Of a stretch of 52,110 bases of DNA, positions 17,926-36,517 are shown in pieces; position 1 is the first letter of the stretch; every line of letters starts with the position of its first letter. Made by a program: the position numbers and the translations under genes. The notes under the pieces were generated by a model that was not told the DNA's origin, ran no database searches, and saw only the letters and a list, made by a program, of their open reading frames with translations. Source of the stretch: a virus (taxonomy: Duplodnaviria > Caudoviricetes); the IMG/VR virus record IMGVR_UViG_3300047409_000613, positions 1-52,110 of that record; one strand, given 5' to 3'.

Positions 17926-18866
17926 TCGGCAAGCCCGTCTTCCGGCGCCAGGAGTTCGATACCGCGACGCTCGAGCTCGGCGGCGCGCCGATCGCGCTCT
18001 CGGCCTATGCGACCACGGGCCTCCGGATCGTCTGCGTCGGCCCGAGCGGCGCCGGCAAGACCAACGCCGGGCTCCTCATCGCCGAGCAGCTCGCGACGCA
18101 GGGCTGGATCTCCGTGCTGTTCGATCGCGAGGGCGACATCGGCGCGCTCTACGAACCCATGCGCGACGTCACGCACTTCGAGAATTACCTGCGCGGCCGC
18201 CATCACCCGATCCTTGTGGTGCCGGTGCGCCACACGGATGACTTCCTCCACTACGGGCGGACGGTCCAGCGCGTCGTCGAGGAGGACCGTCAGCCGGTCT
18301 TCCTGATGGTCGACGAGGGGCAGATGGTCAGCGCGTCCCGGAAGCGGAAGGAATCGATCGGCGAGGCCTCCGACCTGATGAACGATTTCACCGAGCGCGG
18401 GCGCAAACGGTCCCTCGACGTCTTCGTGACGGCGCACCGCTTCAGCGGCACGCTCCATCGCTCGGTCTTCGCGAACAAGAACCTGACCCTGATCGGCCGC
18501 CAGGAAGATCCGACCGCCTGGTCGGCGCTCGCGCCGCAGTTCAAGGGCTCGGCGATCGGCTATCCGGATCTCGCGGCGCTCGCGCCCGGGGAGTTCTTCT
18601 GCTTCGCGCGATCGGGGGTGGAGAAGATCCAGATGCCGATGGCAGATGCGCTCGCCGCGGTCGCCCCGCCGGCGACCGTCGTCCGCCAGGCGCTGCCCAG
18701 CACGTTTTCGCAGTGGGACCGGGCCATGCGCGAGCTGCCGACCGACCGGCTGCAGCGGCTGGACGACGCGGTCACGGGCGTGCTGGCGGCGATCGTCGGG
18801 CTCACGTTTCCGCAACTGGCGGCCGGTCGACGCGCGCGGCGTGAGGAACTGGAGGCCCGGCCGTGA
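17922..18866 (+). CDS. HerA/FtsK-like (DUF87-type) P-loop ATPase
   Basis: Walker A GPSGAGKT, FDREGD, Walker B LMVDEG, RGRKR. Confidence 0.8.
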   Translation: MIGKPVFRRQEFDTATLELGGAPIALSAYATTGLRIVCVGPSGAGKTNAGLLIAEQLATQGWISVLFDREGDIGALYEPMRDVTHFENYLRGRHHPILVVPVRHTDDFLHYGRTVQRVVEEDRQPVFLMVDEGQMVSASRKRKESIGEASDLMNDFTERGRKRSLDVFVTAHRFSGTLHRSVFANKNLTLIGRQEDPTAWSALAPQFKGSAIGYPDLAALAPGEFFCFARSGVEKIQMPMADALAAVAPPATVVRQALPSTFSQWDRAMRELPTDRLQRLDDAVTGVLAAIVGLTFPQLAAGRRARREELEARP

Positions 18867-20746
18867 CCTGGCAGGCCTTCGTCCTCGAGCACGGGTGGCA
18901 CGCGCACGGCGCGCACCTGGCCGCGGTGCTCGAGCAGCCCCTGTTGGCGATCGCGCGCCTGCGCCAATCGGCCAGTTGCCGGCGACTCGCGAAGGCCAAA
19001 ACGTTCGGCGACCTCTTCGCGCTCTGGCGCGGGCGGCCGCCACGCGACGAGGAGTGGCCGGCGCCGCGGAAGATCGGCGGCGGCTATGAGTGGCTGGCGC
19101 CGGAGCTCGCGCTGCTCGCGTCGCTCGTCGGGCGCCTGGGCGCCGCGGAGATTGCGGGCGTCCTGACGACGCGCCTGCGGCGGCTGACCGGCGATCGCCG
19201 CGCGGTCCGGCCGCGCAATGCGATCTGGACCGCCTCCCAGCGCGTCGGCCTCATCGCCACCGACGTCGCCGGCGGGCTCACGGCGCACCAGGCCGGCCGC
19301 GAGATCGGCTGCGTGTCGATCATCTACAACGAGATCCGGCACGGACGGCTGAAGACCGTGCGCGTCGGCCGCCTCCTCGTCATCCCGCGCGACGAGTGGG
19401 CGCGGTGGAAGGGCACGCGGGTCTTCCCCCCGAAGGGCTACGTCCAGCTCTCGCGGCTGAAGCGGCCGCTCGGCATCCGGAGTGACAAGCTCTCGGAGTG
19501 GGCGCGGCTCGGCTACGTGCCGACGGCGATCCGCTGCAACCCGTACGGCGCGCGCGCGGCATCGACGATGTTCGGCACCTGGTGGATTGACCCGAAGATC
19601 GTCACGAAGCTCACCGCCGATCGCCGCGCCGGCCGCGCGATGCCCTGGTGGGGCCAGCCCGAGCCGGGCAACCTGAAGATCACCTGGACGCTCCTGCAGC
19701 AGCGCCAGCATCCCGCGCGGTGTGCCACGTGCCGCGCGATCTGGGGCCCCGCGGGCGCGCCGCGGACGTTCGACGACTACATGCAGCGGTATCCGCCGCT
19801 GGCCTTCGGCGCGAAGCGGCACCTCACGCGCGTGTGGTCGGACGGCCTGTCGGTCAGCGAGCTCGCGCGCGACGTCAACCTCCCCTCGTCGCTGGTGTTG
19901 TCCGCGATCCGGACCGGGGTCCTTCGCGCGACCCGCGTCGCCAGCCGGTATGTCATCACGCGCACCGACGCGACGCGCTGGAAGTTCCGGCGCTGTCCCA
20001 CGGGTCGCGGCCGGCACTGCTGGATGCAGATCAGCGCGGCGCGTCAGACATACGGGTTCAGCCGCGCGGAAATCGCCGCGCACATCAAGGCCGGTCGACT
20101 CACGTCGAAAATCGGCGCGTGCGGTCCGCAGCGGGGTCTTCGGTACGTGCTCCGCCAGCAGATCCGCGAGCTCCGGGAAACCTCGGGTTTCCCCGCCGCG
20201 GACGCCGCCCGGCGACTCGGGATCTCCGTCGCGCGCCTGAAGACGTTCGCGCGGTACGCGGACTGGCGCGATCCGCACCGCTACACCCTCGACGTCATCA
20301 CCACCATCCGGAAGCGAATGGAATCCGAGGCGGGGTTGACGATCGCCCAGGCCGCGCGGAAGCTCCGCAAGTCGGTCCGGTGGGTCGAGCGGGAGATCGC
20401 CAATGGCACCGCGCGGGTGTTGCGGACCCCGTTCAAGACGACGCGGCGCTATATCTCCGGGCCGATGTTCCGACGTCTACAGGCCGCGGTCACCCATCCC
20501 ACCCCCAGGCTGCGCTGGTCGTCGGAATGGCTGCTCGTGAGCGACGCGGCACTGTTGGCCGGCGTCTGCAGCAACACGGTGCAGCGCTGGGCGGATCTGG
20601 GCCAGGTCCGGATCCGCTTCAAGGCGCGCTTCCGTCGCTACCACCGCCGTTCGGTCATCGCGCGCGCGCGGCTGCATTGGACCACTGAACGCCGGCGCGG
20701 GCGCGCCCCCGCCCCCGCCTGGCTGCAGACCCCGGAGGCCGCGTGA
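18863..20746 (+). CDS. Large basic protein with multiple excisionase-like HTH repeats
   Basis: About seven [L/M]xxxxAAxxLG...xG.L-type units. Confidence 0.7.
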   Translation: MTWQAFVLEHGWHAHGAHLAAVLEQPLLAIARLRQSASCRRLAKAKTFGDLFALWRGRPPRDEEWPAPRKIGGGYEWLAPELALLASLVGRLGAAEIAGVLTTRLRRLTGDRRAVRPRNAIWTASQRVGLIATDVAGGLTAHQAGREIGCVSIIYNEIRHGRLKTVRVGRLLVIPRDEWARWKGTRVFPPKGYVQLSRLKRPLGIRSDKLSEWARLGYVPTAIRCNPYGARAASTMFGTWWIDPKIVTKLTADRRAGRAMPWWGQPEPGNLKITWTLLQQRQHPARCATCRAIWGPAGAPRTFDDYMQRYPPLAFGAKRHLTRVWSDGLSVSELARDVNLPSSLVLSAIRTGVLRATRVASRYVITRTDATRWKFRRCPTGRGRHCWMQISAARQTYGFSRAEIAAHIKAGRLTSKIGACGPQRGLRYVLRQQIRELRETSGFPAADAARRLGISVARLKTFARYADWRDPHRYTLDVITTIRKRMESEAGLTIAQAARKLRKSVRWVEREIANGTARVLRTPFKTTRRYISGPMFRRLQAAVTHPTPRLRWSSEWLLVSDAALLAGVCSNTVQRWADLGQVRIRFKARFRRYHRRSVIARARLHWTTERRRGRAPAPAWLQTPEAA

Positions 20747-22378: not shown

Positions 22379-22480
22379 ATGGCCACGAAGACGCGGCCGC
22401 GAGCCACCACACCGGCGGCGAACCACTCGAAAACATTCAACAAACGGTGACCGTGCACTAAACTATTGGGGTCGGTTTGC

Positions 22481-22527
22481 GACTGGGGGTCAGGGGGTCG
22501 CTGGTTCGAATCCAGTCATCCCGACCA
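22481..22527 (+). mobile_element. Second att-like core: 3' half of tRNA-Pro(GGG)
   Basis: GACTGGGGGTCAGGGGGTCGCTGGTTCGAATCCAGTCATCCCGACCA (anticodon loop, T-arm, CCA); no 5' half upstream. Confidence 0.88.
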
Positions 22528-22662
22528 TTTTTCGCACGAATCGTTGCCGTAAAATTGCCGAATTCGGCGGCTAGGGTTGCTCTGAACGGCTGGACCATCC
22601 GCGCCAGCCTGCCGCCGATTCTTTCCCACCCATTCCGCGGACGCTGCTTGCGGAGGCAGCCC

Positions 22663-23034
22663 GTGGCGAAGTACTCGGTTCGTATCGTCACCACCTCACC
22701 CGACGGGCCGCCGATCATTTTCGAGGTTCGAAACCTCGCTGAGATCGCCGGGGCATATCAGCGACTCCGGAATGAGGCGCTGGGGCGTGCACACCGGGCC
22801 CAGCAGCGCGCGCGATCGATCGCCGGCGTGACGGCGAAACGCGATGCCCGGCAGCGCGGGGCCGACGGGGACGAGGAGCTGCTCACGGCCTTGAAGGCTC
22901 AACGCGAGAAACACCCCTCGCACTCACTCCGCGCGATTGCCAGCAACCTGGTGTCGCGCTTCGGCAGCCATCATCACAAGAGTCCCGTCGACGCGCTGCG
23001 CAAGCGACTCGCCCGCCTCGAACGCCGAAAGTAG
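22663..23034 (+). CDS. Hypothetical protein with C-terminal HTH-like segment
   Basis: GGAGG SD; SLRAIASNL...DALRKRL. Confidence 0.55.
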   Translation: MAKYSVRIVTTSPDGPPIIFEVRNLAEIAGAYQRLRNEALGRAHRAQQRARSIAGVTAKRDARQRGADGDEELLTALKAQREKHPSHSLRAIASNLVSRFGSHHHKSPVDALRKRLARLERRK

Positions 23035-23081
23035 GACGCGCGCCGCGGTTCTGTCCCATCGCGCGTGCTCTACTCCCACAC

Positions 23082-23309
23082 ATGAGCACGACGGTTCAGA
23101 GCGTCACACCCGACAGCCCCCCCGCTCGCATCCTCCGGCGTCCAGTCGTGATCGATCGCGTTGGCGTGAGCTACTCGACGATCTGGCGCATGTACCGGGC
23201 CGGGCAATTCCCCGCGCCGATTCGGGTTTCGGCCCGGATTGTCGGTTGGCGCGAGCGTGACGTCGACGCCTGGATTGCCGCGCGCGAAGAGCGCCGGAGG
23301 ATCGGGTGA
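23082..23309 (+). CDS. alpA: AlpA-family transcriptional regulator
   Basis: ILRRPVVIDRVGVSYSTIWRMYRAGQFPAPIRVSARIVGWRERDVDAWI. Confidence 0.92.
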   Translation: MSTTVQSVTPDSPPARILRRPVVIDRVGVSYSTIWRMYRAGQFPAPIRVSARIVGWRERDVDAWIAAREERRRIG

Positions 23310-23560
23310 GCGCCGGCGACGACAGCAACCAGGCAGCGGAGCGCGCCGCGATCGCGACGACGTCGCCATGGCTGAACGGCCAGCAGGCAGCAGCCTACGT
23401 GGGGAAGAGCAAGCAATTTCTCTTTCGCGAGATCCACGCCGGCCGGCTGCGCGCGGCTCGTATCGGAGGCCGCGGCGAAATCCTGACGCGCGCCGAATGG
23501 CTCGACGAGTTTGTCCAGGCGCAGGCAATTCCGATCTCGATCAACAGGCGGCGCGCGTAA
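23306..23560 (+). CDS. Excisionase-family HTH protein
   Basis: WLNGQQAAAYVG...IHAGRLRAARIGGR...WLDEF. Confidence 0.85.
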   Translation: MSAGDDSNQAAERAAIATTSPWLNGQQAAAYVGKSKQFLFREIHAGRLRAARIGGRGEILTRAEWLDEFVQAQAIPISINRRRA

Positions 23561-24518
23561 ATGGCCACGCCCAGGCGGCCGTACGTCTCGATTCGGCTCG
23601 GGACGTTCGACGACGCGATCGCCGCCGGCGTCTCGAGCGGCGGCGTGTTACTGCTGGCACGCCTACTGACGCATCGCGACAAGCGCTCGGTCCCTGGGCT
23701 TCTCCGGTCTGGCCTCGCTGGTTTGAGCGAATCACTCGGACAGTCGAAGACGGCGACGCGGCGCGGGCTCATCGAACTCGAACGCGCCCACCTGGTGCGT
23801 CTCGACGCCCCCGCGCGGGTGCTCTATGTGGAGGGCGCGATCGACGCGGATCCCCCGCGGACAGAAAACAGCGTCCGCGGCATGGCGGCCCAGGTGCGCG
23901 AACTGCCGGCGACCTCCCCGGTCACTCTGGCCGTCCGTCGCGCCATCGAGGCCGCGCTCTCGGAAGGCGACAAGGCGTCCGCCTGGCTGGCGACGTGGCG
24001 CGAGCTCGCCGGCCCGGACTCAGGCCCTGACCCAAGCCCTGAGTCAGGGCCTGACCCAGGGCCGGACTCAGGCCCTCACGCGCGCGCGCGTACCACCACC
24101 ACCACCGATCCCGAGATCCGATCCCGAGATCCGAGATCCGAGACCCGCGCGCGCGGCGCTGGCGGGCGAGGGCGGCGCCGGCGACGTCGTCGCGGTGGCG
24201 GCGAAGACCAACGGCACGGGCCTGCGTGAACGCTTCGACGCGTTCTGGCAGGCGTATCCCCGGAAAGTCGCGAAGGATGGCGCGTGGCGCGCCTGGCAGA
24301 AGCGGAAGCCGAGTGCGGAACTGCTGCAGCAGATCGTCGCGGCGCTTGCCTGGCAAGTACACCAGGACACCTGGCTGAAGGACGGCGGCCGCTACATTCC
24401 GCACCCGGCCACGTGGCTCAATGCCGGCCGGTGGCAGGACGAACCGAGCAAGGGCCCGCGGCTGAACGATCGCACGCTCGCGATCGGCCGGGCCGGCGAG
24501 GAGTTTCTCCGATCATGA
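23561..24518 (+). pseudogene. Phage replication initiator split by a frameshift in an internal repeat tract
   Basis: wHTH-like N-part (23561-24229 frame); C-terminal FDAFWQAYPRKVAK...YIPHPATWLNAGRWQDE in another frame. Confidence 0.75.
24016..24143. repeat. Putative origin 2: 5x12-bp iterons plus simple repeats
   Basis: GGACTCAGGCCC-like x5 (24016-24075), (CG)6, (ACC)5, GATCCCGAGATCC x2. Confidence 0.75.
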
Positions 24519-25186
24519 TCGACGCCGACAAGCCGAGGTTCGTGGAGGCCGTCGGCCGTCTCGCGGTCGCGCTGCGCGAGAAGGACCCCGACGTCGTCAC
24601 GCTGCGTGTGTACTTCGACGGGCTGCGGACCCTCGAGATCGAGCTCGTCGACGCCGCCGCGGAGCGACTGATGAGCGCGGCGTGGTTTCCCAAGGTGAGT
24701 GAATGGCGAGCGGCGGCCGCGAAGATCGAAGGCGAGCGCCGCGCGGCGCAACGCGAGCTGTTACGAAAACTCCCGACGCCAATTTGTGACCGGTGCGCCG
24801 ACACGGGCTGGATCGAACTGGGCGCCGGCGAGACGTTCAAGGGCCACACGGCGACGCGGCGCGCGGAACCCTGCGCGTGTCAACAGGCGCGGCGGCTCGA
24901 GCTGCTCGGCCGGCGACACTGGCCCGCGCTCCCGGCCGGTGCGCCGGCGACAGAGGACCGCGCGTTCACGCGAGCCGAGAGCGCGAGGGCCGTCACCGAG
25001 TTCGAACGCGCCCGCGGCGCGCGGCTCGTGAAGACGATGCCAGAGGATCCGCCGAGACGCGCGCGCAGCGCCACGCAACGCGCGTTTGAGATCGTGCTGC
25101 AGGGCATCGCGGCCCAGGTGAAGCGGGTCGCCGCGGCCGAGGCGGTCGTCGCCACGAAGACAGGGACGGACGGCGACCCACGATGA
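24515..25186 (+). CDS. Putative helicase loader/inhibitor-like protein with Zn finger
   Basis: YFDGL...WFPKVSEW and CDRCADTGW...PCAC; directly follows Rep. Confidence 0.55.
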   Translation: MIDADKPRFVEAVGRLAVALREKDPDVVTLRVYFDGLRTLEIELVDAAAERLMSAAWFPKVSEWRAAAAKIEGERRAAQRELLRKLPTPICDRCADTGWIELGAGETFKGHTATRRAEPCACQQARRLELLGRRHWPALPAGAPATEDRAFTRAESARAVTEFERARGARLVKTMPEDPPRRARSATQRAFEIVLQGIAAQVKRVAAAEAVVATKTGTDGDPR

Positions 25187-25413
25187 AGACGGCCGCGACC
25201 GGCGTAGTCGTGCTCTGCGCCGGCCACGTGGTTCGATCGGCGGTCGTCGAACTGCTCGCGGATCTTGAGACCAGAGGCTTCCGGTTCTTCGTCGAGCGCG
25301 GGCGCCTCCTCGTCTCGCCCGCCTCTGAGTTGACGGACTTTGATGATCTCTGTATCCGCGCGAATGTTGACGAGCTGCGCGCCATCGTGCGCGCGTGTGG
25401 AGATCGCCAGTGA
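25183..25413 (+). CDS. TubC-N docking-like small protein
   Basis: LLADLETRGFRFFVERGRLLVSP...IRANVDELRAIV; a pattern often seen near satellite primases. Confidence 0.55.
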   Translation: MKTAATGVVVLCAGHVVRSAVVELLADLETRGFRFFVERGRLLVSPASELTDFDDLCIRANVDELRAIVRACGDRQ

Positions 25414-25760
25414 CGGACCAGGTCCGCACGTCCGGCGATCTTCGCGTGCCGTTCACCACGGCGCTCGACGCGTTCAGCGTGCCGGCAGTCGTGACGCCCC
25501 CCGAGGGCACGCCGATCGAGACGCGCGGGATCTGGGTCAGTCCGACGACCGAGAACAGGCCCGGTTCCATCGACCTGAAGCGCCGCGAACCGACGCGGAT
25601 CCTGGCCCTTCCGCTCGCCGACGTGCCGAGCGTGCCACGTGGAACGGCCATCGTGGCGCCCGAGATGGACGGGCTCGAGGCGCGGCGCTGGCGCGTGGAG
25701 GGGTTCGACCGCCTCGAGGTGGACCACGTCCGCGTCATCGTCGCCGAGGGCGCGCCGTGA
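25410..25760 (+). CDS. Head-tail joining protein paralog
   Basis: About 77/104 residues identical (by-eye count) to 34406-34741; GGAG SD. Confidence 0.8.
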   Translation: MTDQVRTSGDLRVPFTTALDAFSVPAVVTPPEGTPIETRGIWVSPTTENRPGSIDLKRREPTRILALPLADVPSVPRGTAIVAPEMDGLEARRWRVEGFDRLEVDHVRVIVAEGAP

Positions 25761-25897
25761 CGCGGACGTACGACGAGGTGCAGGCCGCGGCGGTGCTCAC
25801 CGTGTGCACGTCGTGCCCGATCTGCATCCGCTGCCGACGTCGATTCGATCGTCGAGATTTCGGGGCCCCCAGCGGTGGCCGCGTCCGCTGCGGTTGA
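25757..25897 (+). CDS. Small Cys-rich protein
   Basis: CTSC..CIRC; GTGA overlap. Confidence 0.35.
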   Translation: MTRTYDEVQAAAVLTVCTSCPICIRCRRRFDRRDFGAPSGGRVRCG

Positions 25898-26014
25898 GCC
25901 TCAAAGGTTCGGAGGCTCCTGTGACTTCTGGGCCCCAGACGGGTGCACGGCAGCGCAGGAATCGTCCACCTTCCAGCTGACATTTAGGGCTAAACCGTAA
26001 CGGGCGGCGCATCG
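25898..26014. other. Putative cos/packaging region
   Basis: Intergenic stretch upstream of terS, where lambda-type cos sites lie; exact site not identifiable. Confidence 0.35.
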
Positions 26015-26581
26015 ATGACGAAGACGAAGGCCAGCGCGCGGCGACGGGCGTCGAAGAAAACCGCGCCCCGAACGCGGTCGAAGCCGCGCGGCCTGTTGAC
26101 GCGCCGGGAGCTCGCGACGCTGCTCGACATGCATCGGCAGACGGTGGTGAAGTGGGAGCAGGAGGGGATGCCGATCGCCGAGCGCGGCTCGCGCGGCCGC
26201 GCGTCGCTCTACCGCGAGGTCGACGTGCGCGCCTGGTTGCAGCTGCGCGCGGAGGCCGCGAAACAGCCGGGCGTCGTCACGGCCCTCCAGGACCGGGCGC
26301 GCAAGGAACGTGCGCAGGCCGCGCTCGCGGAACAGTCGTATCAGATGCGAATGCGTGACCTGCTGCCGCGGGACGAGGTCGAGAAGACGTGGGCCGCCGA
26401 GGTCGCCGCGGTGCGCACGAAGCTGCTCGCGTGGACGACGACGCTGGCCGACCAGGTGCACCGAGTCTCGACGATCGAAGGCCTGCCGGGCGTGGAGCGC
26501 CTGCTCCTGGAAGCGGTGCAGGACGTGTTGCGCGAGCTCACCGATCCCCAGCCACCGGTCCCGGGAGCGCGCGTCGCATGA
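26015..26581 (+). CDS. terS: Terminase small subunit (Nu1-like)
   Basis: LTRRELATLL...VKWEQEGMP wHTH followed by a coiled coil. Confidence 0.88.
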   Translation: MTKTKASARRRASKKTAPRTRSKPRGLLTRRELATLLDMHRQTVVKWEQEGMPIAERGSRGRASLYREVDVRAWLQLRAEAAKQPGVVTALQDRARKERAQAALAEQSYQMRMRDLLPRDEVEKTWAAEVAAVRTKLLAWTTTLADQVHRVSTIEGLPGVERLLLEAVQDVLRELTDPQPPVPGARVA

Positions 26582-28479
26582 TGCCCGCGGTCACCGAGAG
26601 CGAGACCCCCGTCCACGCGCTGCTCGTGCAGGTGCGCGCCGGCTACGCGCCGCCACCGGAGCTCAAGGTGTCCGAATTCGCCGACGAACACATCATCGTC
26701 ACGAGCGGCCCGCTCGCGGGAACCAAGTGGCAGACCGCCTTCGCGCCGTATCAGCGCGGGATCCTCGACGCGTTCCATGAGCCCGGCGTGCAGACCGTCG
26801 TCGTGATGGGCAGCTCGCAGTGGGGCAAGACGGCCTGTGCCGTAAACGTCGTCGCGTACCACATCGCGCACGACCCCTGCCCGATCCTCGTCGTCGAGCC
26901 GACGGTTGAGCCGATGGCGAAGGACTTCGCGCGCAACCGCCTCGAGCCGGTCATCGCCGCGAGCGAGATCCTATCGAAGACCGTCGGCAAGAAACGCGCG
27001 AAGGACGCCTCGAACACCACGCTCGCGAAAACGTTCCGTGGCGGCGCCGTGGCGATCGGCGGCGCGAACTCGTCGGCCTCGCTGGCCGCGCGGTCGGTGC
27101 GCCTACTGATCCTCGACGAGGTCGATCGCTATCCGCCCGAGCTCCCGGGCGAGGGCTCGACGCTCGCGATCGTGATGAAGCGGACGCAAGCCTATCGGCG
27201 GCGCAAGCGCATCCTGATGCTCTCGTCGCCGACGCTCGCGAAGGCGCCGATCCACGTGTGGTTCCTGCGCGGCGATCAGCGCCGTTACTACGTGCCCTGT
27301 CCGTCCTGCGCGCACCTGCATGCATTCGAGTGGAAGCAGGTGCGGTGGACCGACGACGATCCCCTGACGGCGCGTCTGCACTGCCCGGCCTGCGACTACG
27401 GCATCAACGATGCGGAGCGCGTCGCCATCCTCGCGCGCGGCGAGTGGCGGGCCGAGGTGCCGGGCCGGCGCGACAAGGCCATCGTGTCGTTCCACATGTG
27501 GGAGGCGTACTCGCCCCTCTCCTCGCTCAGCGAAATCGTCGGCACCTTCCTCGCGGCGCGCGACAAGCAGAAGGCCGGCGACAAGGCGGAGATGCACACC
27601 TGGCAGAACACCACGCTCGGCGAACCGGTGGAGGCGGACGCCGGCGAAGGCGTCGAGCCCTCGTCGCTCATCCTGCGGCGCGAAGCGTACGGCCCCGACA
27701 TCGACGTGCCGGCGGGCGCCTGCTGTCTGACCATGGGGGTCGACGTCCAGGACGATCGCCTCGAGGCGCTGGTGATCGGGTGGGGCCCGGGCGAAGAGTC
27801 ATGGCTCGTCGATCGGCAGACGCTGCCAGGGGATACGTCGCAGCCCGAGCCCTGGCGCGCGCTCGACGCGCTGCTCGATCGGCCCTATCGGCACGCGCGC
27901 GGCGCCCAGTTGATGATCCACGCGATGTGCATCGACTCGGCGGGCCACCGGACGACGATGGTCTACGACTACGCGGAGGTGAAGGCGGCGCGCCGGGTCT
28001 ATGCGATCATTGGGCGGGACGGCCAGCGGCCGATCGTGTCGTCGCCGTCGCCGAAACGCTGGGGCCGGCACGAGCGCCAGGTCCCGCTCTACACCCTCGG
28101 CGTCGACGCGGCGAAGTCGCTGATCGTCTCGCGCCTCAAGCTCCTCGAAAGAGGCGCGGGCTATGTCCATCTCCCGCACACCGAGTGGTGCGACGAGGAG
28201 CTCGCCGCGCAGCTCGCCAGCGAGAAGCTCGTGACGAAGTGGACCAAGGGCGTGCCGGTGCAGGTCTGGGTCAAGAAGCGGGCGCGCAACGAAGGCCTCG
28301 ACATGTTCGTCTACGCGATCGCGGCGCTGCGGTTGCTGAACCCGCGACTGCCGGCGATGCTCCAGGCGCTGCAGGCCGCGAGCTACGACCCGACCGACAT
28401 GCCGCCGCGCGCGCCCGGCGCCTCGGGCCCGCGGCCGCCGGGTCGGCGTGTCGGGCGCAGCGGGTACCTCGGACGTTGA
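26578..28479 (+). CDS. terL: Terminase large subunit (lambda GpA family)
   Basis: SSQWGKT, LILDEVDRY, SSPT, GDQRRYYVPCPSC, GVDVQ, RNEGLD. Confidence 0.96.
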   Translation: MMPAVTESETPVHALLVQVRAGYAPPPELKVSEFADEHIIVTSGPLAGTKWQTAFAPYQRGILDAFHEPGVQTVVVMGSSQWGKTACAVNVVAYHIAHDPCPILVVEPTVEPMAKDFARNRLEPVIAASEILSKTVGKKRAKDASNTTLAKTFRGGAVAIGGANSSASLAARSVRLLILDEVDRYPPELPGEGSTLAIVMKRTQAYRRRKRILMLSSPTLAKAPIHVWFLRGDQRRYYVPCPSCAHLHAFEWKQVRWTDDDPLTARLHCPACDYGINDAERVAILARGEWRAEVPGRRDKAIVSFHMWEAYSPLSSLSEIVGTFLAARDKQKAGDKAEMHTWQNTTLGEPVEADAGEGVEPSSLILRREAYGPDIDVPAGACCLTMGVDVQDDRLEALVIGWGPGEESWLVDRQTLPGDTSQPEPWRALDALLDRPYRHARGAQLMIHAMCIDSAGHRTTMVYDYAEVKAARRVYAIIGRDGQRPIVSSPSPKRWGRHERQVPLYTLGVDAAKSLIVSRLKLLERGAGYVHLPHTEWCDEELAAQLASEKLVTKWTKGVPVQVWVKKRARNEGLDMFVYAIAALRLLNPRLPAMLQALQAASYDPTDMPPRAPGASGPRPPGRRVGRSGYLGR

Positions 28480-28492
28480 GCAGGAGACCCAC

Positions 28493-28717
28493 ATGATCAC
28501 CCGGCGAGGATTCCTCACACTGCTGCCTGGTCCGCTGCTCACGCGGCTCCCGGCGCGCCTTCCGCAACGCGTCCCGCCGGCTGCCATCACCGTGCCGCAT
28601 GTGGGCGTGCGCGAAGTCACGATCCATCTCGACGACCGCCAACTGGTGCACGTCTGCTTCGACGCCGCCGGGGGCCGGCTGCCGGCGGACCTGGTGAAGG
28701 AGATCCTGAGGCCGTGA
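28493..28717 (+). CDS. Small protein with twin-arginine-like N-terminus
   Basis: AGGAG SD; MITRRGFL. Confidence 0.5.
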   Translation: MITRRGFLTLLPGPLLTRLPARLPQRVPPAAITVPHVGVREVTIHLDDRQLVHVCFDAAGGRLPADLVKEILRP

Positions 28718-28920
28718 TGTCCCCGCTGACCGACAAGCAGCGGCGCGTCTTCGCGTTGGCGGTCCGCTACCACGCGATCGCGGAGGAACCCTGCAGCACC
28801 AGCTGGCTGGCGCGCCGGCTCCACCGGCACCGAGCCACCATTCGCGGGCACGCCCTCGCGATCGTGAAAAAGGGCTGGGCGAGCCGCAATACGCCGGCCT
28901 TCCGCGGCCTCCACCTATAA
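28714..28920 (+). CDS. Small winged-HTH protein (LexA-N-like), possible late regulator
   Basis: LTDKQRRVF...STSWLARRL...TIRGHALAIVKKGW. Confidence 0.65.
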   Translation: MMSPLTDKQRRVFALAVRYHAIAEEPCSTSWLARRLHRHRATIRGHALAIVKKGWASRNTPAFRGLHL

Positions 28921-29001
28921 GCCCGGATCCGGCTTACACCGGATACCCACACTTTTTGCGGTCTATCCCGGGCGCGCGCGTTCTGCCACGCTCACGCCAC
29001 C

Positions 29002-29241
29002 ATGACGCCCCAGACCCGCGACCAGCTCCTCGGCAAGCAGACGGCCAACACGGCCGCCCTGGACAAGCTCAAGGCCGAGGTCGCCGAGATTTCGAAGAAC
29101 GCCCCCGCGGCCCGCTCGCAGGCGCAGAACGACCGCCTCCAGGCGATCGAGAAAGAGCGCCAGGCCCTGGTGGAGGAGGCCGAGACGATCGCGGCCGACC
29201 TCGCCAAGCTGCCGGCGGCGGACCCGAAGAAGGCCAAGTAG
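29002..29241 (+). CDS. Small coiled-coil protein
   Basis: Heptad pattern; strong GC3 codon bias. Confidence 0.6.
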   Translation: MTPQTRDQLLGKQTANTAALDKLKAEVAEISKNAPAARSQAQNDRLQAIEKERQALVEEAETIAADLAKLPAADPKKAK

Positions 29242-29248
29242 GGGCTGC

Positions 29249-29488
29249 GTGCCCCCGATCCCGTATACCGCGGACGAGCTCCGGGACCGGATCCGGACGC
29301 TCGAGGATGGCCTGCTCCAGGTCGCCAAGGGCGTGCAGTTCGCGGACCGGGGCGTGACGTACAACTCGGCGGCCGAGATCCGCGAACGGATCGACTACTT
29401 CTCGGGCCAGCTCACGCAATTGACCAGCGGCGCCAGCGTGGTGCCGCGGTCCAAGCAAACCCTCGGCGTCTCGAGGAACGGGTTCTGA
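29249..29488 (+). CDS. gpW-like head completion protein
   Basis: GVQFADRGVTYNSAAEI; lies before the portal. Confidence 0.8.
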   Translation: MPPIPYTADELRDRIRTLEDGLLQVAKGVQFADRGVTYNSAAEIRERIDYFSGQLTQLTSGASVVPRSKQTLGVSRNGF

Positions 29489-31050
29489 TGCAGGCCACCA
29501 CGGCGGTCCCCGAGTTTGACAGCCCGCGGCCGCAGCTGGCGCTGACGTCGCGTCCGGGGCGGGTCCGTGCCCAGGTCGCCGAGCGCGTCGAGTCGCTGTA
29601 CGACGCCGGCGCGAACACGCGGCGCACCGTCGGCTGGCGCGCGCCCACCGTCTCCTCGAACCAGGCCCTCCTCGCCAACCTCACCACGCTCCGCGATCGC
29701 TCGCGCGCCGCCACCCGCAACGACGGGTACGCGAAGGGCGTGATCGACAAGCTGGTCACCAACGTCATCGGCACCGGGATCCAGCCGCTCTCGCAAGCGG
29801 CCGACCCGGCGTTCCGCCGCGCGCTGCAGGCGCTGTGGCTGCAGTGGACGGACGAGAGCGACGCCGACGGCCTCCTCGACTACTACGGCCAGCAGACCCA
29901 GGCGGTCCGCACGTGGTTCGAAGGCGGCGAGGCCTTCACCCGGCTGCGGCCGCGGCTCCCGGAGGACGGGCTCTCGGTGCCGCTGCAGATCCAGGTCCTC
30001 GAGCCGGAGCTCTGCCCCCATACCCACACGGTCTGGTCGGCGACCGCGCGTATTCGGGCGGGGATCGAGTTCAACCCGATCGGGAAGCGCGTCGCGTACT
30101 GGTTCCACCCCTCGCGCCCCGAGATCGATGACTTCGACGCGTCGACGTTGCGCCGCGTGCCGGCGACCAGCGTCCAGCATCTCTACGATCCGCTGCGGCC
30201 GGGGCAGTTGCGCGGACTGCCGCTGCTCGTCCAGGCGCTGATCGCCCTCTACGAACTCGACAAGTACGACGACGCCTCGCTCCTCAAGCAGCAGCTGGCG
30301 AATCTCTTTGTCGCGTTCGTGACGCGGACGGCGCCGATCGTCGAGCCCGAGACCGTGCATCCGCTCACGGGCCTGCCGGTCGACCGCAGCGTCGACGACG
30401 CGCCGATGCTCGTGATGGAGCCGGGCATCTTCCAGGAGCTCAATCCGGGCGAGGACGTGAAGTGGTCGACGCCGCCCGCCGTCGACGCGGCGTATCCGGA
30501 TTTCATGCGGCAGCAGCTGCTCGGCGTGTCGGCCGCCACGGGCGTCCCGTACGAAGTGCTGACCGGCGACATGTCCAAGGTGAACGACCGGACGGTGCGC
30601 GTCATCCTCAACGAGTTCCGGCGCCGCATCACCGCGTGGCAGCACCAGATCGTCGTCTTCCAGGTGTGCCGGCCGCACTGGCAGGCGTGGATGGACCAGG
30701 TGTTTCTCTCGGGGGCGCTGCCGATTCCCCTGGCGTACCTCGACGATCCGTCCCCCTGGGCCGCGGTCGAGTGGCAGCCGCAGGGCTGGCCGTACATCAA
30801 TCCGACCCAGGACGTGCAGGCGCAGCGGGAAGCCGTCCGGTCGGGCTTCAAGTCGCGCACCCGGGTCGTCAGCGAGCAAGGCGACAGCGCCGCGGTCATC
30901 GACGCGGAGCAGGAGGCCGACAACACGCGGGCCGACGAGCTCCGGCTGCGCTACGACTCTGACGGCCGCACCGCCGCCACTCCGACGGCGGCGGCGATGT
31001 TCGTCCCCGAGCCCAAGGCGGCCCTTGCCCAGACCGGAGCCCCCGCATGA
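29488..31050 (+). CDS. Portal protein, lambda family
   Basis: LRDRSR..RND.YA, RPGQLRG, GVPYEVLTGDMSKVN. Confidence 0.95.
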   Translation: MQATTAVPEFDSPRPQLALTSRPGRVRAQVAERVESLYDAGANTRRTVGWRAPTVSSNQALLANLTTLRDRSRAATRNDGYAKGVIDKLVTNVIGTGIQPLSQAADPAFRRALQALWLQWTDESDADGLLDYYGQQTQAVRTWFEGGEAFTRLRPRLPEDGLSVPLQIQVLEPELCPHTHTVWSATARIRAGIEFNPIGKRVAYWFHPSRPEIDDFDASTLRRVPATSVQHLYDPLRPGQLRGLPLLVQALIALYELDKYDDASLLKQQLANLFVAFVTRTAPIVEPETVHPLTGLPVDRSVDDAPMLVMEPGIFQELNPGEDVKWSTPPAVDAAYPDFMRQQLLGVSAATGVPYEVLTGDMSKVNDRTVRVILNEFRRRITAWQHQIVVFQVCRPHWQAWMDQVFLSGALPIPLAYLDDPSPWAAVEWQPQGWPYINPTQDVQAQREAVRSGFKSRTRVVSEQGDSAAVIDAEQEADNTRADELRLRYDSDGRTAATPTAAAMFVPEPKAALAQTGAPA

Positions 31051-32111
31051 AGAGGCAGTGGTATCGCTTCGACAACAGCGCGAGCGACCCGGCGATCGCC
31101 GAGCTGTTCATCTTCGGCGACATCGGCGCGTCGTACTGGGGCGAGGAGAGCGTCACCGCCAAGCAGTTCATGGACGACCTGAAGGCGCTCGCGTCCGTCG
31201 TGACCACGATCAAGGTGCACGTGAACTCGCTCGGCGGCGACGTCTTCGACGGCGTCGCGATCGCGAACGCGCTGCGCGACCAGATCCGCACGAAGGGGCG
31301 GACGGTCACGACGATTGTCGAGGGGATTGCCGCGAGCGCGGCCTCGATCGTGATCATGGCGGGCGAAACGATTCAGGTCGCCGACAACGCGCTCGTGATG
31401 GTGCACAACTGCTGGACCGTCGGCATCGGCAACGCGGCCGACATGCGGAAGCTGGCCGACGATCTCGACAAGATCGACGGCGCCATCCTGGCCACCTACA
31501 AATGGCACTCCACGCTGAGCGACGAGGAACTGCACGCGCTCATGGACGCCGAAACCTGGATGTCCGCCGATGAAGCGATCGCCAACGGGTTCGCCACCGA
31601 AAAAGTCGAAGGCCTCAAAGCCGCCGCCAGCCTGGACGCGCGCGCGCTCGCCAAGCTCACGGTCCCCGAGAAGTATCGCGATCGTGTCACGGCGTTGCTG
31701 ACGCCCGTGCCGGCGCCGGAGACGCCACCGGCCGCGGCGGCCGCAGCAGACGTGCTCCGCCTCTGTCGCGAAGCGGACTGCCTCGACCTGGCCGAGGGGC
31801 TGCTCGCCGCGCACACCCCGCTGGCCGACGTGCAGGCGCGGGTGACCGAGGCGAAGACGACGCGCGCGATCGCCGCCCGCCGCGCGACGGACATCCGCGC
31901 GCTCTGCGGCCTGGCCAAATTGCCCGAGCTCGCCGACGGCTACATCGCCGGCGGCATCACCATCGACGCGGTCAAGGCCCAGCTCGTCGTGCTCAAGGCC
32001 AAGATCGAGCACACCGAGATCGACGGCAGCCTGCTCCCGGACGCCGGCGCCCGCCGGCCGAGCGTCCTCAACAGCCGCGACATTTACCTCGAACGCAACC
32101 GACGCAACTAG
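31047..32111 (+). CDS. ClpP-like head maturation protease/scaffold
   Basis: NSLGGDVFDG, GIAASAAS, MVHN, ETWMSADEA. Confidence 0.93.
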   Translation: MKRQWYRFDNSASDPAIAELFIFGDIGASYWGEESVTAKQFMDDLKALASVVTTIKVHVNSLGGDVFDGVAIANALRDQIRTKGRTVTTIVEGIAASAASIVIMAGETIQVADNALVMVHNCWTVGIGNAADMRKLADDLDKIDGAILATYKWHSTLSDEELHALMDAETWMSADEAIANGFATEKVEGLKAAASLDARALAKLTVPEKYRDRVTALLTPVPAPETPPAAAAAADVLRLCREADCLDLAEGLLAAHTPLADVQARVTEAKTTRAIAARRATDIRALCGLAKLPELADGYIAGGITIDAVKAQLVVLKAKIEHTEIDGSLLPDAGARRPSVLNSRDIYLERNRRN

Positions 32112-32123
32112 GAGTAGCCAACC

Positions 32124-33344
32124 ATGACGACCCCTCGCACTCGCTTCACCGTGACGCCCTGGCTGGTCGCGTTGCTCGTGGCCGTTGCGCATCTGCCGGC
32201 GACGGCGATCGTGAAAGTCAATGCGCTCGGGATGGGCTTTGAACACGAACAGCCGTGGCGCCGCCCCCTGGCCGCCCTCGGCGCCGGCCTCGCGCGCGTG
32301 CACCGGTCCCCGCTCTTCGGGCCCGGCCTCGCGGCGGCCGCGCTCGTCGTGTCCTGGCTCCATCCGCACGCCGCGTGGGCGCTGCCGCTGGCGGTCGGCG
32401 TCCTCACCGAGGGCCGGCACGCCGGCGAGTTCCTGCTCGAGGAGCGCGCCATGGGCGGCATCGGCACGCCGAGCCGCGAGAACGTCACGGTGTTGTCGGG
32501 GCAGGTCCTGAAAGCCGGGTCCGTCATCGGCCGCGTGAACAAGGCCGTCGGCAGCGTGGCGATTCCGGTCGTCGTGGGCACCGGCAACGGCGTCGCCTCG
32601 ACCGTCTTCGGCGGGCCCGACACGCTGGCCGGCAACTACGTCGTGACGTGCACGATCGCGGCGGCCAACGGCGGCACGTTCAGCGTCACGAATCCCGCCG
32701 GCAAGGCGCTGCCCGTCGCCCTCGTCGGCGTGCCGTACCGCTCGCGCGAGATCAACTTCACGATCGCGGACGGCGCCGCCGACTTCATCGTGGGCGATTC
32801 GTTCACCTTCGTCGTTGGCACGACCGCGCCGCTCGCGGTCGGGACCGGCAACGGGGTCATCTCGGCGATCACCTTCGGGCCGGACGCGAAACCGGGCAAC
32901 TACCGGTTCGAGATCATCCAGGCCATCGCCAACGGCGGGCAGTTTAAGTTGACCGATCCCGACGGCGAGCTCGTCGACACGGGCTACATCGTCGCCGGCG
33001 CTGGCGGGACCTACGTGGGCGCCAACAAGCGCCAGATCAACTTCACCGTCACGGAAGGCGCGACCGACTTCGTCCTGGGCGACGCCTTCAACATCGCCGT
33101 GTCGAAGACGGCGACGGGCGGCAAGGTGGTCGCCTGGGATCCGACGCTCGTGGACGGCCGCGACGACGTGGCCGGCATCCAGTTCGACAACGTCGACGCC
33201 ACGGCGGGCGATGTGGTCGGCGTGATCATCGCCCGCGACGCGACCGTCATCAAGGCCTCGCTCGAGTGGGCGGCGGGCATCACCGCCGCGCAGAAGGAAT
33301 CGGCGTACCTCGACCTCGAGGCGCGCGGGATCATTTGCCGGTAG
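32124..33344 (+). CDS. Head decoration protein (gpD-like) with hydrophobic leader and duplicated insert
   Basis: LTEGRHAGEFLL...SRE and terminal LEARGIICR; lies between protease and MCP. Confidence 0.85.
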   Translation: MTTPRTRFTVTPWLVALLVAVAHLPATAIVKVNALGMGFEHEQPWRRPLAALGAGLARVHRSPLFGPGLAAAALVVSWLHPHAAWALPLAVGVLTEGRHAGEFLLEERAMGGIGTPSRENVTVLSGQVLKAGSVIGRVNKAVGSVAIPVVVGTGNGVASTVFGGPDTLAGNYVVTCTIAAANGGTFSVTNPAGKALPVALVGVPYRSREINFTIADGAADFIVGDSFTFVVGTTAPLAVGTGNGVISAITFGPDAKPGNYRFEIIQAIANGGQFKLTDPDGELVDTGYIVAGAGGTYVGANKRQINFTVTEGATDFVLGDAFNIAVSKTATGGKVVAWDPTLVDGRDDVAGIQFDNVDATAGDVVGVIIARDATVIKASLEWAAGITAAQKESAYLDLEARGIICR

Positions 33345-33378
33345 GCCGCAGGCCGTAACGAGGAAAAGAGAGACCACC

Positions 33379-34401
33379 ATGCAACTCGACGTCTTCACCG
33401 GCGACGCCTTCTCGATGCACTCGCTGACGGCCACGTTCATCAAGCTGCCGTACCAGCCGATGCGCCTGGGCGCGCTGAAGCTCTTTCAGGAGAGCGGCAT
33501 GCGCACCACGTACGCGGACGTCGAGTCCATGGACGGCCGCCTGTCGCTCATCCAGTCCTCGCCGCGCGGCGGGGTCGCCGCCGATCCGTTGGGCTCGAAC
33601 AAACGCAAGCTGCGCACCTTCAAGGCCTACCACTTCGAACGCCAGTCGAAGGTGTACGCCGACGAGGTGCAGAGCATCCGCGCCTTCGGGTCCGAGACCG
33701 AGCTGCAGCAGGTCGAGACGATCGTCCAGGAGCGGCTGGCCGAGCTCCGCCCGATGCACGAGGTCACGCAGGAGTACCACCGCGCCAACGCGCTCCAGGG
33801 GTTGCTGCTGGACGCCGACGGGTCGACGCTGCTGAATCTCTTCACGGAGTTCGGGGTCGCGCAGCAGGTGGAGAACTTCCCCTTCAGCGTCGTCGCGACC
33901 GACGTGCGGGCGCTCATCGTGGCCGCCAAGCGCCTGGCCGAGAACGAGCTCGGCGGCCAGGTCATCACCGGGTGGCGGGGCTTCTGTTCCGGCGAGTGGT
34001 TCGATGCCTTTGTCGGGCACGCCAGCGTCGTCGAGGCGCTCAAGTTCCAGGAGTCGCAGGTCCTCCGATCGGACATCCGGGCGGGGTGGGAATACGCCGG
34101 CGTGACCTGGGAGGAGTACGTGGGCGGCGTACCGAAGCCGGAGAGCGCCGGCGGCGGCACGGCCAGCTTCTTCCCGGCCAACGTCGCGTTCCTGGTGCCG
34201 ACCGTCGCGCCGTCGATCTTCATCACGCGGTTCGCGCCGGCCGACTACGAGGAAACCGTGAACACGCTCGGCCTGCCGCTCTACGCGAAGTCGGTCCCGG
34301 ACTCGAGCGGGCTGAACAAGTACCGGCTGATCGACACGCAGTCGAACTTCATCAGCCTGAACCTGCGGCCGCGCGCCGTCATCAAGCTGACGAAGTCGTA
34401 G
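33379..34401 (+). CDS. Major capsid protein (lambda E family)
   Basis: DAFSMHSLT, SSPRGG, IRAFG, TQEYHR, FAPADY.E.VNT.GLP.Y. Confidence 0.95.
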   Translation: MQLDVFTGDAFSMHSLTATFIKLPYQPMRLGALKLFQESGMRTTYADVESMDGRLSLIQSSPRGGVAADPLGSNKRKLRTFKAYHFERQSKVYADEVQSIRAFGSETELQQVETIVQERLAELRPMHEVTQEYHRANALQGLLLDADGSTLLNLFTEFGVAQQVENFPFSVVATDVRALIVAAKRLAENELGGQVITGWRGFCSGEWFDAFVGHASVVEALKFQESQVLRSDIRAGWEYAGVTWEEYVGGVPKPESAGGGTASFFPANVAFLVPTVAPSIFITRFAPADYEETVNTLGLPLYAKSVPDSSGLNKYRLIDTQSNFISLNLRPRAVIKLTKS

Positions 34402-34405
34402 CGCC

Positions 34406-34741
34406 GTGAGCGGCGATCTCCGGGTCCCGTTCGCGACGGCGCTCGAGGCGTTCGCGGTACCGGCGACCGTCACGGTGCCCGGCGGCGGGCCCCTCATCAC
34501 GCGCGGGATCTGGGTCTCGCCGCTGACGCAGGACATGCCCGGATCCGGCGGGGTCCGGCGCCGGGAGCCGAAGCGGGTGCTGGCGCTGCCGCTCGCGGAC
34601 GTGCCGACGGTGCCGCGCGACACCGCGATCGTGGCGCCGGAGATGGCGGGCCTGACGGCCCAGCGCTGGCGGGTGGAGGGGTTCGAGAGCGTCGAAGTCG
34701 ATCACGTGCGCGTGATCGTCGTGGCGGATCCGGGGGCGTAA
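34406..34741 (+). CDS. Head-tail joining protein (FII-like)
   Basis: Position after MCP; small beta-rich protein. Confidence 0.7.
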   Translation: MSGDLRVPFATALEAFAVPATVTVPGGGPLITRGIWVSPLTQDMPGSGGVRRREPKRVLALPLADVPTVPRDTAIVAPEMAGLTAQRWRVEGFESVEVDHVRVIVVADPGA

Positions 34742-34744
34742 CCG

Positions 34745-34897
34745 ATGGGCCTGCTCGAAACGCTGATTCTCGTTTGTCTGGTGCTGTGGATCCTCGGGCT
34801 CGGCACCGGGTACGCGCTCGGCGGCGCCATTCACGTGCTCCTGGCCGTCGTGATCGTGCTGGTGCTCGTGAAGGTCCTCCGAGGCGAGCGGCTCTGA
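34745..34897 (+). CDS. lmo0937/DUF5670-like small membrane protein
   Basis: LVLWILGLGTGYALGGAIHVLL; 50 aa, absent from the ORF track. Confidence 0.75.
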   Translation: MGLLETLILVCLVLWILGLGTGYALGGAIHVLLAVVIVLVLVKVLRGERL

Positions 34898-35344
34898 ATG
34901 ACGAAGCGGCAGGCGATTCTCACCGCGCTCGTGGCCCGGGTCAGCGCGATCGCGATCGCCGCCGGCTTCGCCACCGACGCCGGCGCGACCGTGTTCCTCG
35001 GGGAGGCGGCGGAACTCGGGCCCGACGATCCCGACGCGGCGATCGCGCTGGTGCTCGAGGACGACTCGCCGCAGGACAAGGGCTACCTGTACGTGCAGCT
35101 GCCCATCGCCGTGGCGGCCCTCGCGAAGGCCGACCTCGAGACGCCCTGGCTGACGATCGAAGCCATCGTGGGGGACATCAAGCGCGCGGTGGAGCATGAG
35201 GACCGCACGCTCGGGGGGCTGCTGAAAGGGCCGATGACGCGCGGCGCGACCCGGACCCTCACGCGCGAGCCGGGGAGCACGACGGTCGGCGCGAGCGTCA
35301 CCTACATCTGCAGTTACGTCGAGGCATGGGGAGATCCTGGGTAG
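34898..35344 (+). CDS. Tail terminator-like protein
   Basis: Position; RQAIL...DIKRAV...DRTLGG. Confidence 0.65.
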   Translation: MTKRQAILTALVARVSAIAIAAGFATDAGATVFLGEAAELGPDDPDAAIALVLEDDSPQDKGYLYVQLPIAVAALAKADLETPWLTIEAIVGDIKRAVEHEDRTLGGLLKGPMTRGATRTLTREPGSTTVGASVTYICSYVEAWGDPG

Positions 35345-35896
35345 ATGGCCACCATCACGCTGAACTTCAAGACCGACCAGACGCAGCGCGCGATCGACCG
35401 CCTGGCCACGCAGGCGCCGATCGCGATCGTGCGCGCGCTGAACAAGTCGATCGCGAGCGCGAAGACGGCCATGAACCGCGTGGTCAGCCAGGACATGGGC
35501 CTCAAGGTGAGCGACGTCAGCGCGAAGATCGGGATCGTCCCGGCCGCGGCCGATCGGCAGCGGGCGCGGCTGTACGCGGACGCGACGCGGATCCCCCTGA
35601 TCAAGTTCGGCGCGAAGGGGCCGGAGCCCTCGCGCGGCAAAGGCCGCGGCGTCACGGCGAAGCTGGGCCAGGCGCGCGGCCGCTACCCGACCGCGTTCAT
35701 CGCGACGATGGCGGGCGGCCATCGCGGCGTCTACGTGCGGAACGCCAAAGCGCGGCTCTCCATCCGTGAGCTCTTCGGCCCGTCGATCGCGCACGTGTTC
35801 GAGAAGCACGTCAACGTCGGGATCGCGCGCGGCCAGGAGCAGCTCGCGAAGAACCTGAAGTCGGAATTCCGGTTTGCCCTGCAGCAGGCCGCGTAA
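35345..35896 (+). CDS. Minor tail protein Z-like
   Basis: AIVRALNK...AFIATM..GH.GV..R...ELFGPSI. Confidence 0.8.
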   Translation: MATITLNFKTDQTQRAIDRLATQAPIAIVRALNKSIASAKTAMNRVVSQDMGLKVSDVSAKIGIVPAAADRQRARLYADATRIPLIKFGAKGPEPSRGKGRGVTAKLGQARGRYPTAFIATMAGGHRGVYVRNAKARLSIRELFGPSIAHVFEKHVNVGIARGQEQLAKNLKSEFRFALQQAA

Positions 35897-35908
35897 GCAG
35901 AGGACACC

Positions 35909-36517
35909 ATGCTCAATGCCACCCCGTTTGAAGTCATCGCCGCCCCGTTCACCCTGTGGGTGGCGGTCGTCGGGACCGCCTTTCCCCTCGTCTCCGCCGT
36001 GCCCGCCGTCGCCTGGGTTGAGGTGGGCTCGTCTGGGCCGCTCAACTACGACGACGCGGGCGTCACGATCGAGCAGCCGCAGTCGATCGCCTTCTGGAAG
36101 TCGCTCGGCGACGCCGGGTCCCGCAAGGCGTTTCGGTCCAGCGAAGACCTCAAGATCGGCCTGACGCTCGTCGACCTCACGCTCGAGCAGTACGCGCTGG
36201 CGCTCAACCACAACGCGATCACGACGGTCGCGGCCGCGTCGGCGATCCCTGGGACCAAAAAGATCGGCCTGTCGCGCGGCTTCTCGGTGGACACGCGGGC
36301 GCTGCTCGTGCGCGGCCCCTCGCCGTACATGGCCGACGGCATCGCGCAATTTGAAGTCCCGCGCGCGGCGCAAACCGGCAGCCCCTCGACGGTCTTCAAG
36401 CGCGATACCCCGGCCGGTCTGAAGCTGGAATGGACCGCCATGGTCGATCCGGGCGCCGCGACCCCGGACGAGTACTTCGGTCGCCTCGTCTGCGAGACGG
36501 CGGCCGCGCTCCCGTAA
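35909..36517 (+). CDS. Major tail tube protein
   Basis: Position, size and beta-rich composition. Confidence 0.75.
   Translation: MLNATPFEVIAAPFTLWVAVVGTAFPLVSAVPAVAWVEVGSSGPLNYDDAGVTIEQPQSIAFWKSLGDAGSRKAFRSSEDLKIGLTLVDLTLEQYALALNHNAITTVAAASAIPGTKKIGLSRGFSVDTRALLVRGPSPYMADGIAQFEVPRAAQTGSPSTVFKRDTPAGLKLEWTAMVDPGAATPDEYFGRLVCETAAALP

Follow-up and report, generated by a model that had tools for sequence, protein, structure and literature searches.

Two constrained copies of a predicted gpFII-type stopper gene in one complete 52-kb phage genome

The stopper is a small protein that closes the DNA-filled head of a phage and sets the surface on which the tail docks, and the locus considered here raises the question of why a complete phage genome should carry two genes for it. 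The window, i.e., the whole stretch of DNA that was analysed, has 52,110 nucleotides and is a complete IMG/VR virus genome (IMGVR_UViG_3300047409_000613) with direct terminal repeats of 121 nt, a completeness rating of 100%, and a G+C content of 70%. The sole sequencing run that contains it is soil metagenome DNA. One stopper gene, copy A, precedes the terminase genes, and the other, copy B, occupies the canonical place in the head-tail gene run (Table 1). Following the integrase-like gene region, the window has a rightward block of genes that are mostly without known family. Within the head-tail run the gpW-like adaptor is the expected upper partner of the stopper, and the gpU-like terminator is its expected lower partner. 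The tail module also has a tape-measure-sized ORF of 1217 aa, and holin-like and glycosyl hydrolase 108-like matches, both weak, are found at about 45.9-47.3 kb.

Table 1. Coordinates of the features of the window that are discussed in the text.
Feature	Position	Strand	Remarks
Integrase-like gene	1503-2738		
Start of tightly packed gene string	23306-24518	+	HTH_17-like ORF, 222-aa ORF, ~97-aa ORF
222-aa ORF	24518-25186	+	GC3 0.85; no family; stop overlaps start of 76-aa ORF (ATGA)
76-aa phage ORF without known family	25183-25413	+	No Pfam/PHROG; stop overlaps start of copy A
Copy A, predicted gpFII-type stopper (head-closure) paralogue, 116 aa	25410-25760	+	GC3 0.91
Spacer between copy A and terS, 254 nt	25761-26014		No coding GC3 signal
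Small terminase terS, Nu1/DUF1441-like	26015-26581	+	
Large terminase, gpA type	26578-28479	+	GpA_ATPase E 6e-72, GpA_nuclease E 5e-87
gpW-like head-tail adaptor (Ad1)	29249-29488	+	phrog_2545, E 7.6e-8
Portal, lambda family	29488-31050		
ClpP-type protease	31047-32111		
gpD-like protein, 406 aa	32124-33344	+	
Major capsid protein, gpE type	33379-34401	+	PF03864, E 2.4e-76
Copy B, predicted stopper, 111 aa	34406-34741	+	Canonical place, 4 nt after major capsid gene
DUF5670 small hydrophobic ORF, 50 aa	34745-34897	+	PF18919, E 3.7e-8
Tail terminator, gpU-like	34898-35344	+	phrog_4204, E 3.2e-7
gpZ-like tail completion protein	35345-35896	+	PF06763, E 1e-16

According to Pfam and modelled fold, both copies are predicted gpFII-type stoppers, which agrees with an earlier note on this DNA that had called the product of copy A a head-tail joining protein. 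Copy A matches PF05354 (Phage_attach, the lambda gpFII family) with 28.9 bits and E = 1.8e-6, above the gathering cut-off of 26, and copy B, having 24.1 bits and E = 5.5e-5, lies just below this cut-off and would not pass it alone. AlphaFold2 models based on 63-row alignments have pLDDT of 90.0 and 90.8 and pTM of 0.80 and 0.81 for A and B, respectively, with one helix and six strands in the same order in both. In Foldseek, which that note had suggested as a check for an FII-like fold, the same four structures rank highest for the two models: lambda neck 8k37_M, lambda 8xow_f, Chi neck 8vhx_F, and R4C stopper 8gtf_M. The best match is 8k37_M (E 2.6e-4 for A and 3.3e-4 for B, TM 0.59). VIA-align reports for copy A the Z values of 11.0 with the Chi neck, 10.2 with the phage 812 stopper, 9.8 with the Pam3 neck, and 9.3 and 9.1 with lambda. 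The models thus have the N-terminal helix, beta-sandwich, inserted hairpin or loop, C-terminal tail, and length of about 115 aa that characterize the gpFII fold. As for a gene position between the major capsid gene and the tail terminator/completion genes, copy B has it and copy A does not.

PHROGs offers no family for A or B. Profiles of 4 and of 63 rows, run by sequence against the PDB, return no phage neck protein at a useful E, the best phage row being 'Stopper protein gp12' with E = 0.52. A profile of A, B, and the two nearest proteins finds 443 cluster representatives with E of at most 0.001 among 1.84 billion, and judging by these matches the A/B subfamily is sizeable and mostly metagenomic. 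A complex prediction for copy A and the tail terminator, made without controls, has a score of 0.01 and carries no weight either way.

The proteins of the two copies share 77 of 104 aligned residues (74%, BLASTP, gapless, E 4e-54). Their DNA is identical at 232 of 312 positions (74%), and self-blastn reports 75.6% identity over 312 nt with E = 1e-55. The similar segment extends from the codon of Ser8 in A (Ser2 in B) through the common 'VIV' near the C-terminus; the flanks do not align, and the similarity is confined to the ORF. Among the 80 base differences 42 fall at third positions, and 30 of the 77 identical residues are encoded by different codons. Copy A is therefore, as the earlier note had it, an intact ORF about three-quarters identical to copy B with many synonymous changes, and no assembly duplicate. 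A 28.7-kb Logan contig from another assembler covers positions 24000-36000, including both copies, with zero differences; its source is probably the data that also gave the record, so that the independent support it lends is weak. An assembly or tandem-duplicate artefact was rejected on these grounds, namely the DNA identity of 74-76%, the third-position changes, and the single contig that spans both genes. Matches of 21-27 letters between other contigs and the stretch were disregarded. Apart from the terminal repeat, self-blastn finds only one more internal repeat in the record besides the A/B pair, a 72-nt repeat within the gpD-like gene; the repeat analysis rests on self-blastn, as self-tblastx is dominated by low-scoring high-GC matches.

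Both copies are constrained, being neither decaying nor accelerated. By NG86, dN equals 0.227 and dS 0.606, a ratio of 0.37. The pairwise codon model GY94, which allows for the strong third-position G+C bias, gives an ML omega of 0.094 at a dS near 2 that is saturated and imprecise, and omega = 1 is rejected (2dlnL 51.7, p 7e-13). The dN/dS near 1 that the earlier note had taken as a sign against its proposal is thus not what the copies have. In a quick ML tree of 72 rows (A, B, three locus sequences, and P0003-P0069, with P0070-P0154 omitted), A and B are sisters with SH-aLRT of 89 and end branches of 0.30 and 0.32. Compared with 175 outgroup members, A retains the commoner residue at 14 of the differing sites and B at 19. 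The differences sit on variable family columns (mean entropy 2.69 vs 1.99), the invariant and nearly invariant family columns correspond between the copies, and the mean BLASTP score to 155 family members is 76.1 bits for A and 73.6 for B. The dN/dS, however, averages both lineages since their split, and a history in which A served another phage as its normal stopper and moved here only recently would give the same value. Since the copies may have diverged as orthologues in two phages, the low value does not prove selection at the present place.

Regarding the age of the pair, the outgroups are about 50% identical to the copies and their synonymous sites are saturated. The most similar capsid protein, 78% identical, belongs to locus L030, the stopper of which is merely 49-50% identical to A and B. 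Because of this, and because the relatives have no second copies, the split between A and B appears from the sequences to be younger than their split from every sampled relative.

Relatives were fetched via the terminase, portal, and capsid proteins, giving 85 loci in all. By the family HMM, 23 distinct related contigs have one stopper gene apiece, always on the strand of the anchoring query gene, and only the record under study has two; no stopper was detected in 58 more distant or shorter loci. In the three loci that were inspected (L003, L005, and L006) the stopper lies downstream of capsid/head genes, as copy B does, and no second copy is present in the 10 kb upstream of the terminase or portal in the seven loci that include this region. 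Extra short HMM stretches in L031 and L041 are in the same open frame as the real match and were taken as spurious. Ten related whole virus records (completeness 31-100%) have one strong match each, and one of them (G010) also has an additional 12-bit match with E = 0.0027. Among 50,697 cultured phage records, lambda FII matches 111 records at 111 places, never two per record, which differs from the two copies seen here; tblastn of copy A against 50,697 phage records gives no match. The nearest proteins after A and B in a collection of 5.8 billion clusters are 52% and 48% identical. As for pattern scans, copy A alone returns nothing in viral contigs and the small alignment A2 returns one locus there; genome contigs yield nothing with copy A or the small alignment, and metagenome contigs yield one contig of 1.2 kb. 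A search of genome contigs with the large terminase has its sole match in Clostridium (28% identical). The literature search on duplicated stopper genes found no relevant report, which is not proof of absence. Within this survey, two constrained stopper copies in a full phage are a rare arrangement of a well-known protein.

Copy A is the last gene of the tightly packed string that starts at 23306, with a chain of 1-4 nt overlaps from 24518 onward. Its GTG start overlaps the upstream TGA as GTGA, with GGAG 7 nt upstream of the GTG, and an alternative longer reading from the GTG at 25395 is also open. The neighbours upstream have no Pfam or PHROG function. The 76-aa ORF is TubC_N-like according to a weak Atlas lead, and further weak Atlas leads in the string are zinc-binding and G39P_N. 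The 222-aa ORF at 24518-25186 overlaps the preceding ORF by one base, hits only phage hypothetical clusters in the Atlas, and has no relative in IMG/VR viral contigs by pattern scan. The five ORFs at 23306-25413 have a tblastn match in none of 81 related loci, and terS has one in 12; copy A thus stands at a sharp mosaic boundary, where a lineage-specific block gives way to the head module that relatives share. Neither B nor most relatives have anything that corresponds to the first seven codons of A, and the position of the GTG start of B reads ACG in A, which points to a rebuilt 5' end of copy A. The description of copy A as lying outside the morphogenesis operon is accurate for its position, but the gene has the orientation of terS and ends 254 nt before it, and the consensus scan shows no plus-strand terminator between the two. 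Just before the gene string of copy A, about 900 nt (22400-23300) lack a clear third-position coding signal and could be a regulatory or origin region; the 185-aa ORF found there has no Pfam family.

The spacer that separates copy A from terS is the expected place of cos given the gpA/Nu1-type terminase, by comparison with lambda, and is likely to be the site of cos and/or a promoter. It contains two 14-nt direct repeats 67 nt apart, GATTTCGGGGCCCC and GACTTCTGGGCCCC, and, immediately ahead of the terS start, a motif CATT(T)AGGGCT that recurs in the related locus L006 at about 9440-9490; the repeats and the motif are candidates for packaging signals or promoter elements. Across the stop of copy A lies a perfect inverted repeat of 12 bp, its arms separated by a 20-nt loop (25726-25769). 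In folding against shuffled sequences neither the inverted repeat (z -0.36) nor the whole spacer (z -0.09) does better. The consensus scan finds no promoter, no plus-strand terminator between A and terS, and one minus-strand terminator only. An ORF of 46 codons on the plus strand (25757-25897), the GTG of which overlaps the copy A stop as GTGA, encodes a CxxCxxCxxC run and has no GC3 signal; it is probably not a gene.

To see where the copies differ, the parts of lambda gpFII serve as a guide. In the lambda virion structure (PMC10721106), the gpW barrel is received by a ring made of the N-terminal helix of gpFII (residues 4-24). Two other parts touch gpU, namely the hairpin (46-62), which reaches into the gpU ring, and the C-terminal loop (108-117). 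The A and B models have their elements in an order that matches lambda gpFII almost residue for residue, a register that rests on a weak profile alignment (E 0.089) and on secondary-structure order. The copies differ at 4 of 17 sites in the N-terminal part, 15 of 65 in the sandwich, 9 of 19 in the hairpin, and 5 of 9 in the C-terminal part. Taken together, the hairpin and the C-terminal part hold 14 of the 33 differences, where family variability would predict 31% (P 0.03; Fisher p 0.016). The enrichment holds for the tail-facing parts as a pair; for the hairpin alone the excess is not significant (p 0.10). This small excess hints that the tail-docking face may have shifted more than the head-side face.

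Compared with known systems, the arrangement is partly lambda-like. Lambda gpFII (head closure Hc1; PF05354; PDB 8k37, 8xow, and 1K0H) has 117 aa, close to the 116 and 111 aa of A and B, and copy B follows the capsid gene in a run of terminase, gpW-like adaptor, portal, protease, gpD-like, and gpE genes as in lambda. Unlike lambda, there is no FI gene between capsid and stopper, and the lambda order FII, Z, U is replaced by stopper, DUF5670, terminator, and gpZ. The identity of the copies to lambda gpFII in structural alignment is only 14-17%, and the A/B subfamily finds no lambda protein chain in the PDB by sequence. Stoppers of other siphophages (Chi 8vhx_F, 812 8qgr, R4C 8gtf_M, and SPP1 gp16 7z4w) match the fold of copy A with Z of 7-11 and have no detectable sequence similarity to it. 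As for capsid-forming PICI satellites (cf-PICIs), a preprint (bioRxiv 10.1101/2025.02.11.637232) describes connectors that are 61-83% identical and, with their adaptors, go with different tail use; A and B are likewise small neck proteins, 74% identical. The cf-PICIs of that account are 10-18 kb long and lack lysis genes or a full tail module, whereas the present phage genome is complete at 52 kb and encodes both a tail module and lysis-like genes. A further difference is that the two stoppers occur here in one genome, with no second adaptor gene found among the ORFs scanned.

What, then, is copy A for? We tentatively prefer the reading that it is a retained second neck isoform, which seats under the adaptor ring and presents a somewhat different tail-docking face. 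Copy A would date from after the lineage had parted from all sampled relatives, and would stem either from duplication of B or from capture of an orthologue from a very close relative. Its 5' end would later have been rebuilt, with seven extra codons, the GGAG ribosome site, and a start overlapping the prior stop. The protein would still be made and still work as a neck subunit, its N-terminal helix and beta-sandwich seating under the gpW-like adaptor ring of DNA-filled heads and its beta-hairpin and C-terminal tail forming a docking face unlike that of B. Two isoforms of the stopper would then be available to the phage, perhaps produced at different times or in different amounts. The data establish the identity, fold, intactness, constraint, rarity, and position of copy A; its expression, its place in the neck, and a changed tail docking belong to the proposed reading. 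Against the second isoform stand several points: no relative keeps a second copy, so that conservation does not show a long-term benefit; a low dN/dS would look alike if A had recently been an orthologue in another phage; the tail-facing excess of differences is small; and a hexameric ring needs six copies only, which makes the need for a second gene not obvious. Several of the same data suit a somewhat unlikely alternative, in which copy A is the stopper of a close relative, left by recent recombination at the module boundary next to cos, functional or not, doing nothing distinct and bound for eventual loss. Copy A lies exactly at the mosaic boundary given by the tblastn counts of the upstream ORFs and terS, a second copy is absent from all sampled relatives, and the similarity stops at the ORF edges. 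Furthermore, stoppers evolve fast here, as the L030 capsid and stopper identities indicate, so that 74% identity between A and B fits a donor closer than any sampled phage. No trace of donor flanks is seen, however, and no closer donor appears among the 5.8 billion clusters; the new 5' end with its ribosome site and start-stop overlap also looks fitted, although a chance junction could do the same.

It is unlikely, in our estimate, that a complete temperate phage keeps a second stopper with a shifted tail-facing hairpin and C-terminus so that its heads dock to the tails of another resident phage or the heads of rivals are capped. Taken separately, the capping variant is rather improbable: copy A, made early or by the prophage, would cap the heads of related rival phages or satellites with a stopper on which their tails fail to dock, or titrate those tails, acting as a dominant-negative neck subunit. 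Its place at the end of a non-structural gene string, away from the head-tail block, suits this variant, as do the better-kept head side (4/17 and 15/65) compared with the tail side (9/19 and 5/9; P 0.03) and the cf-PICI pair of adaptor and connector, which sets tail choice (bioRxiv 10.1101/2025.02.11.637232). Such a protein would, however, poison the phage's own heads too unless copy A still fits its own tail. The same tail-facing pattern could also be read as an adaptor for foreign tails, heads closed by copy A joining the tails of another resident phage and widening the host range of the particles. This is very unlikely in spite of an experimental precedent, since the genome itself encodes a complete tail module. 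In the precedent, connector/adaptor pairs decide tail compatibility in cf-PICIs and the adaptor changes too, while only one gpW-like gene was found here among the ORFs scanned and self-blastn finds no internal DNA repeat beyond the A/B pair and the one in the gpD-like gene. The suggestion that copy A is a helper gene captured by a satellite did not survive, as this 52-kb phage genome is complete and has its own genes for terminase, portal, capsid, adaptor, and tail terminator, besides the tape-measure-sized ORF and the lysis-like genes. Finally, copy A may be an intact but unexpressed leftover, in line with promoter and terminator scans that found nothing for it. We regard this as hardly probable at all: the 116 codons of copy A read through without interruption, its branch in the tree is no longer than that of B, it has a ribosome site and a coupled start, and at an ML dS near 2 a copy free of constraint would have fallen below 74% protein identity.

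The readings differ in what they would mean. If both copies are used, the pair would be a young example of neck-gene duplication and would offer a simple setting in which to study the evolution of head-tail specificity; as a mere passenger, copy A would be an ordinary mosaic scar. Duplication of this kind may reportedly have given rise to the related folds of gpFII, gpU, and tube proteins (Cardarelli et al. 2010). Tail sharing, if true, would be done by a full phage rather than by a satellite, and with tail sharing or capping the head-tail interface would be a site of phage conflict or exchange via a lone extra neck gene.

Several other observations concern the genes around the two copies. Squeezed in after copy B and before the tail terminator, the DUF5670 ORF resembles a moron within the run of neck genes. 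A 627-aa protein at 18863-20746 (plus strand) has one clear HTH_17 domain (E 5e-10), several more weak helix-turn-helix matches, and a faint match to a late transcriptional activator PHROG. In the 406-aa gpD-like protein, the 116-position gpD decoration model is matched in a manner spread over residues 93-403, and its gene contains the 72-nt direct repeat (32744-32815 and 33029-33100, 79% identical); the product may be a decoration protein that has gained large insertions or been fused to part of a scaffold.
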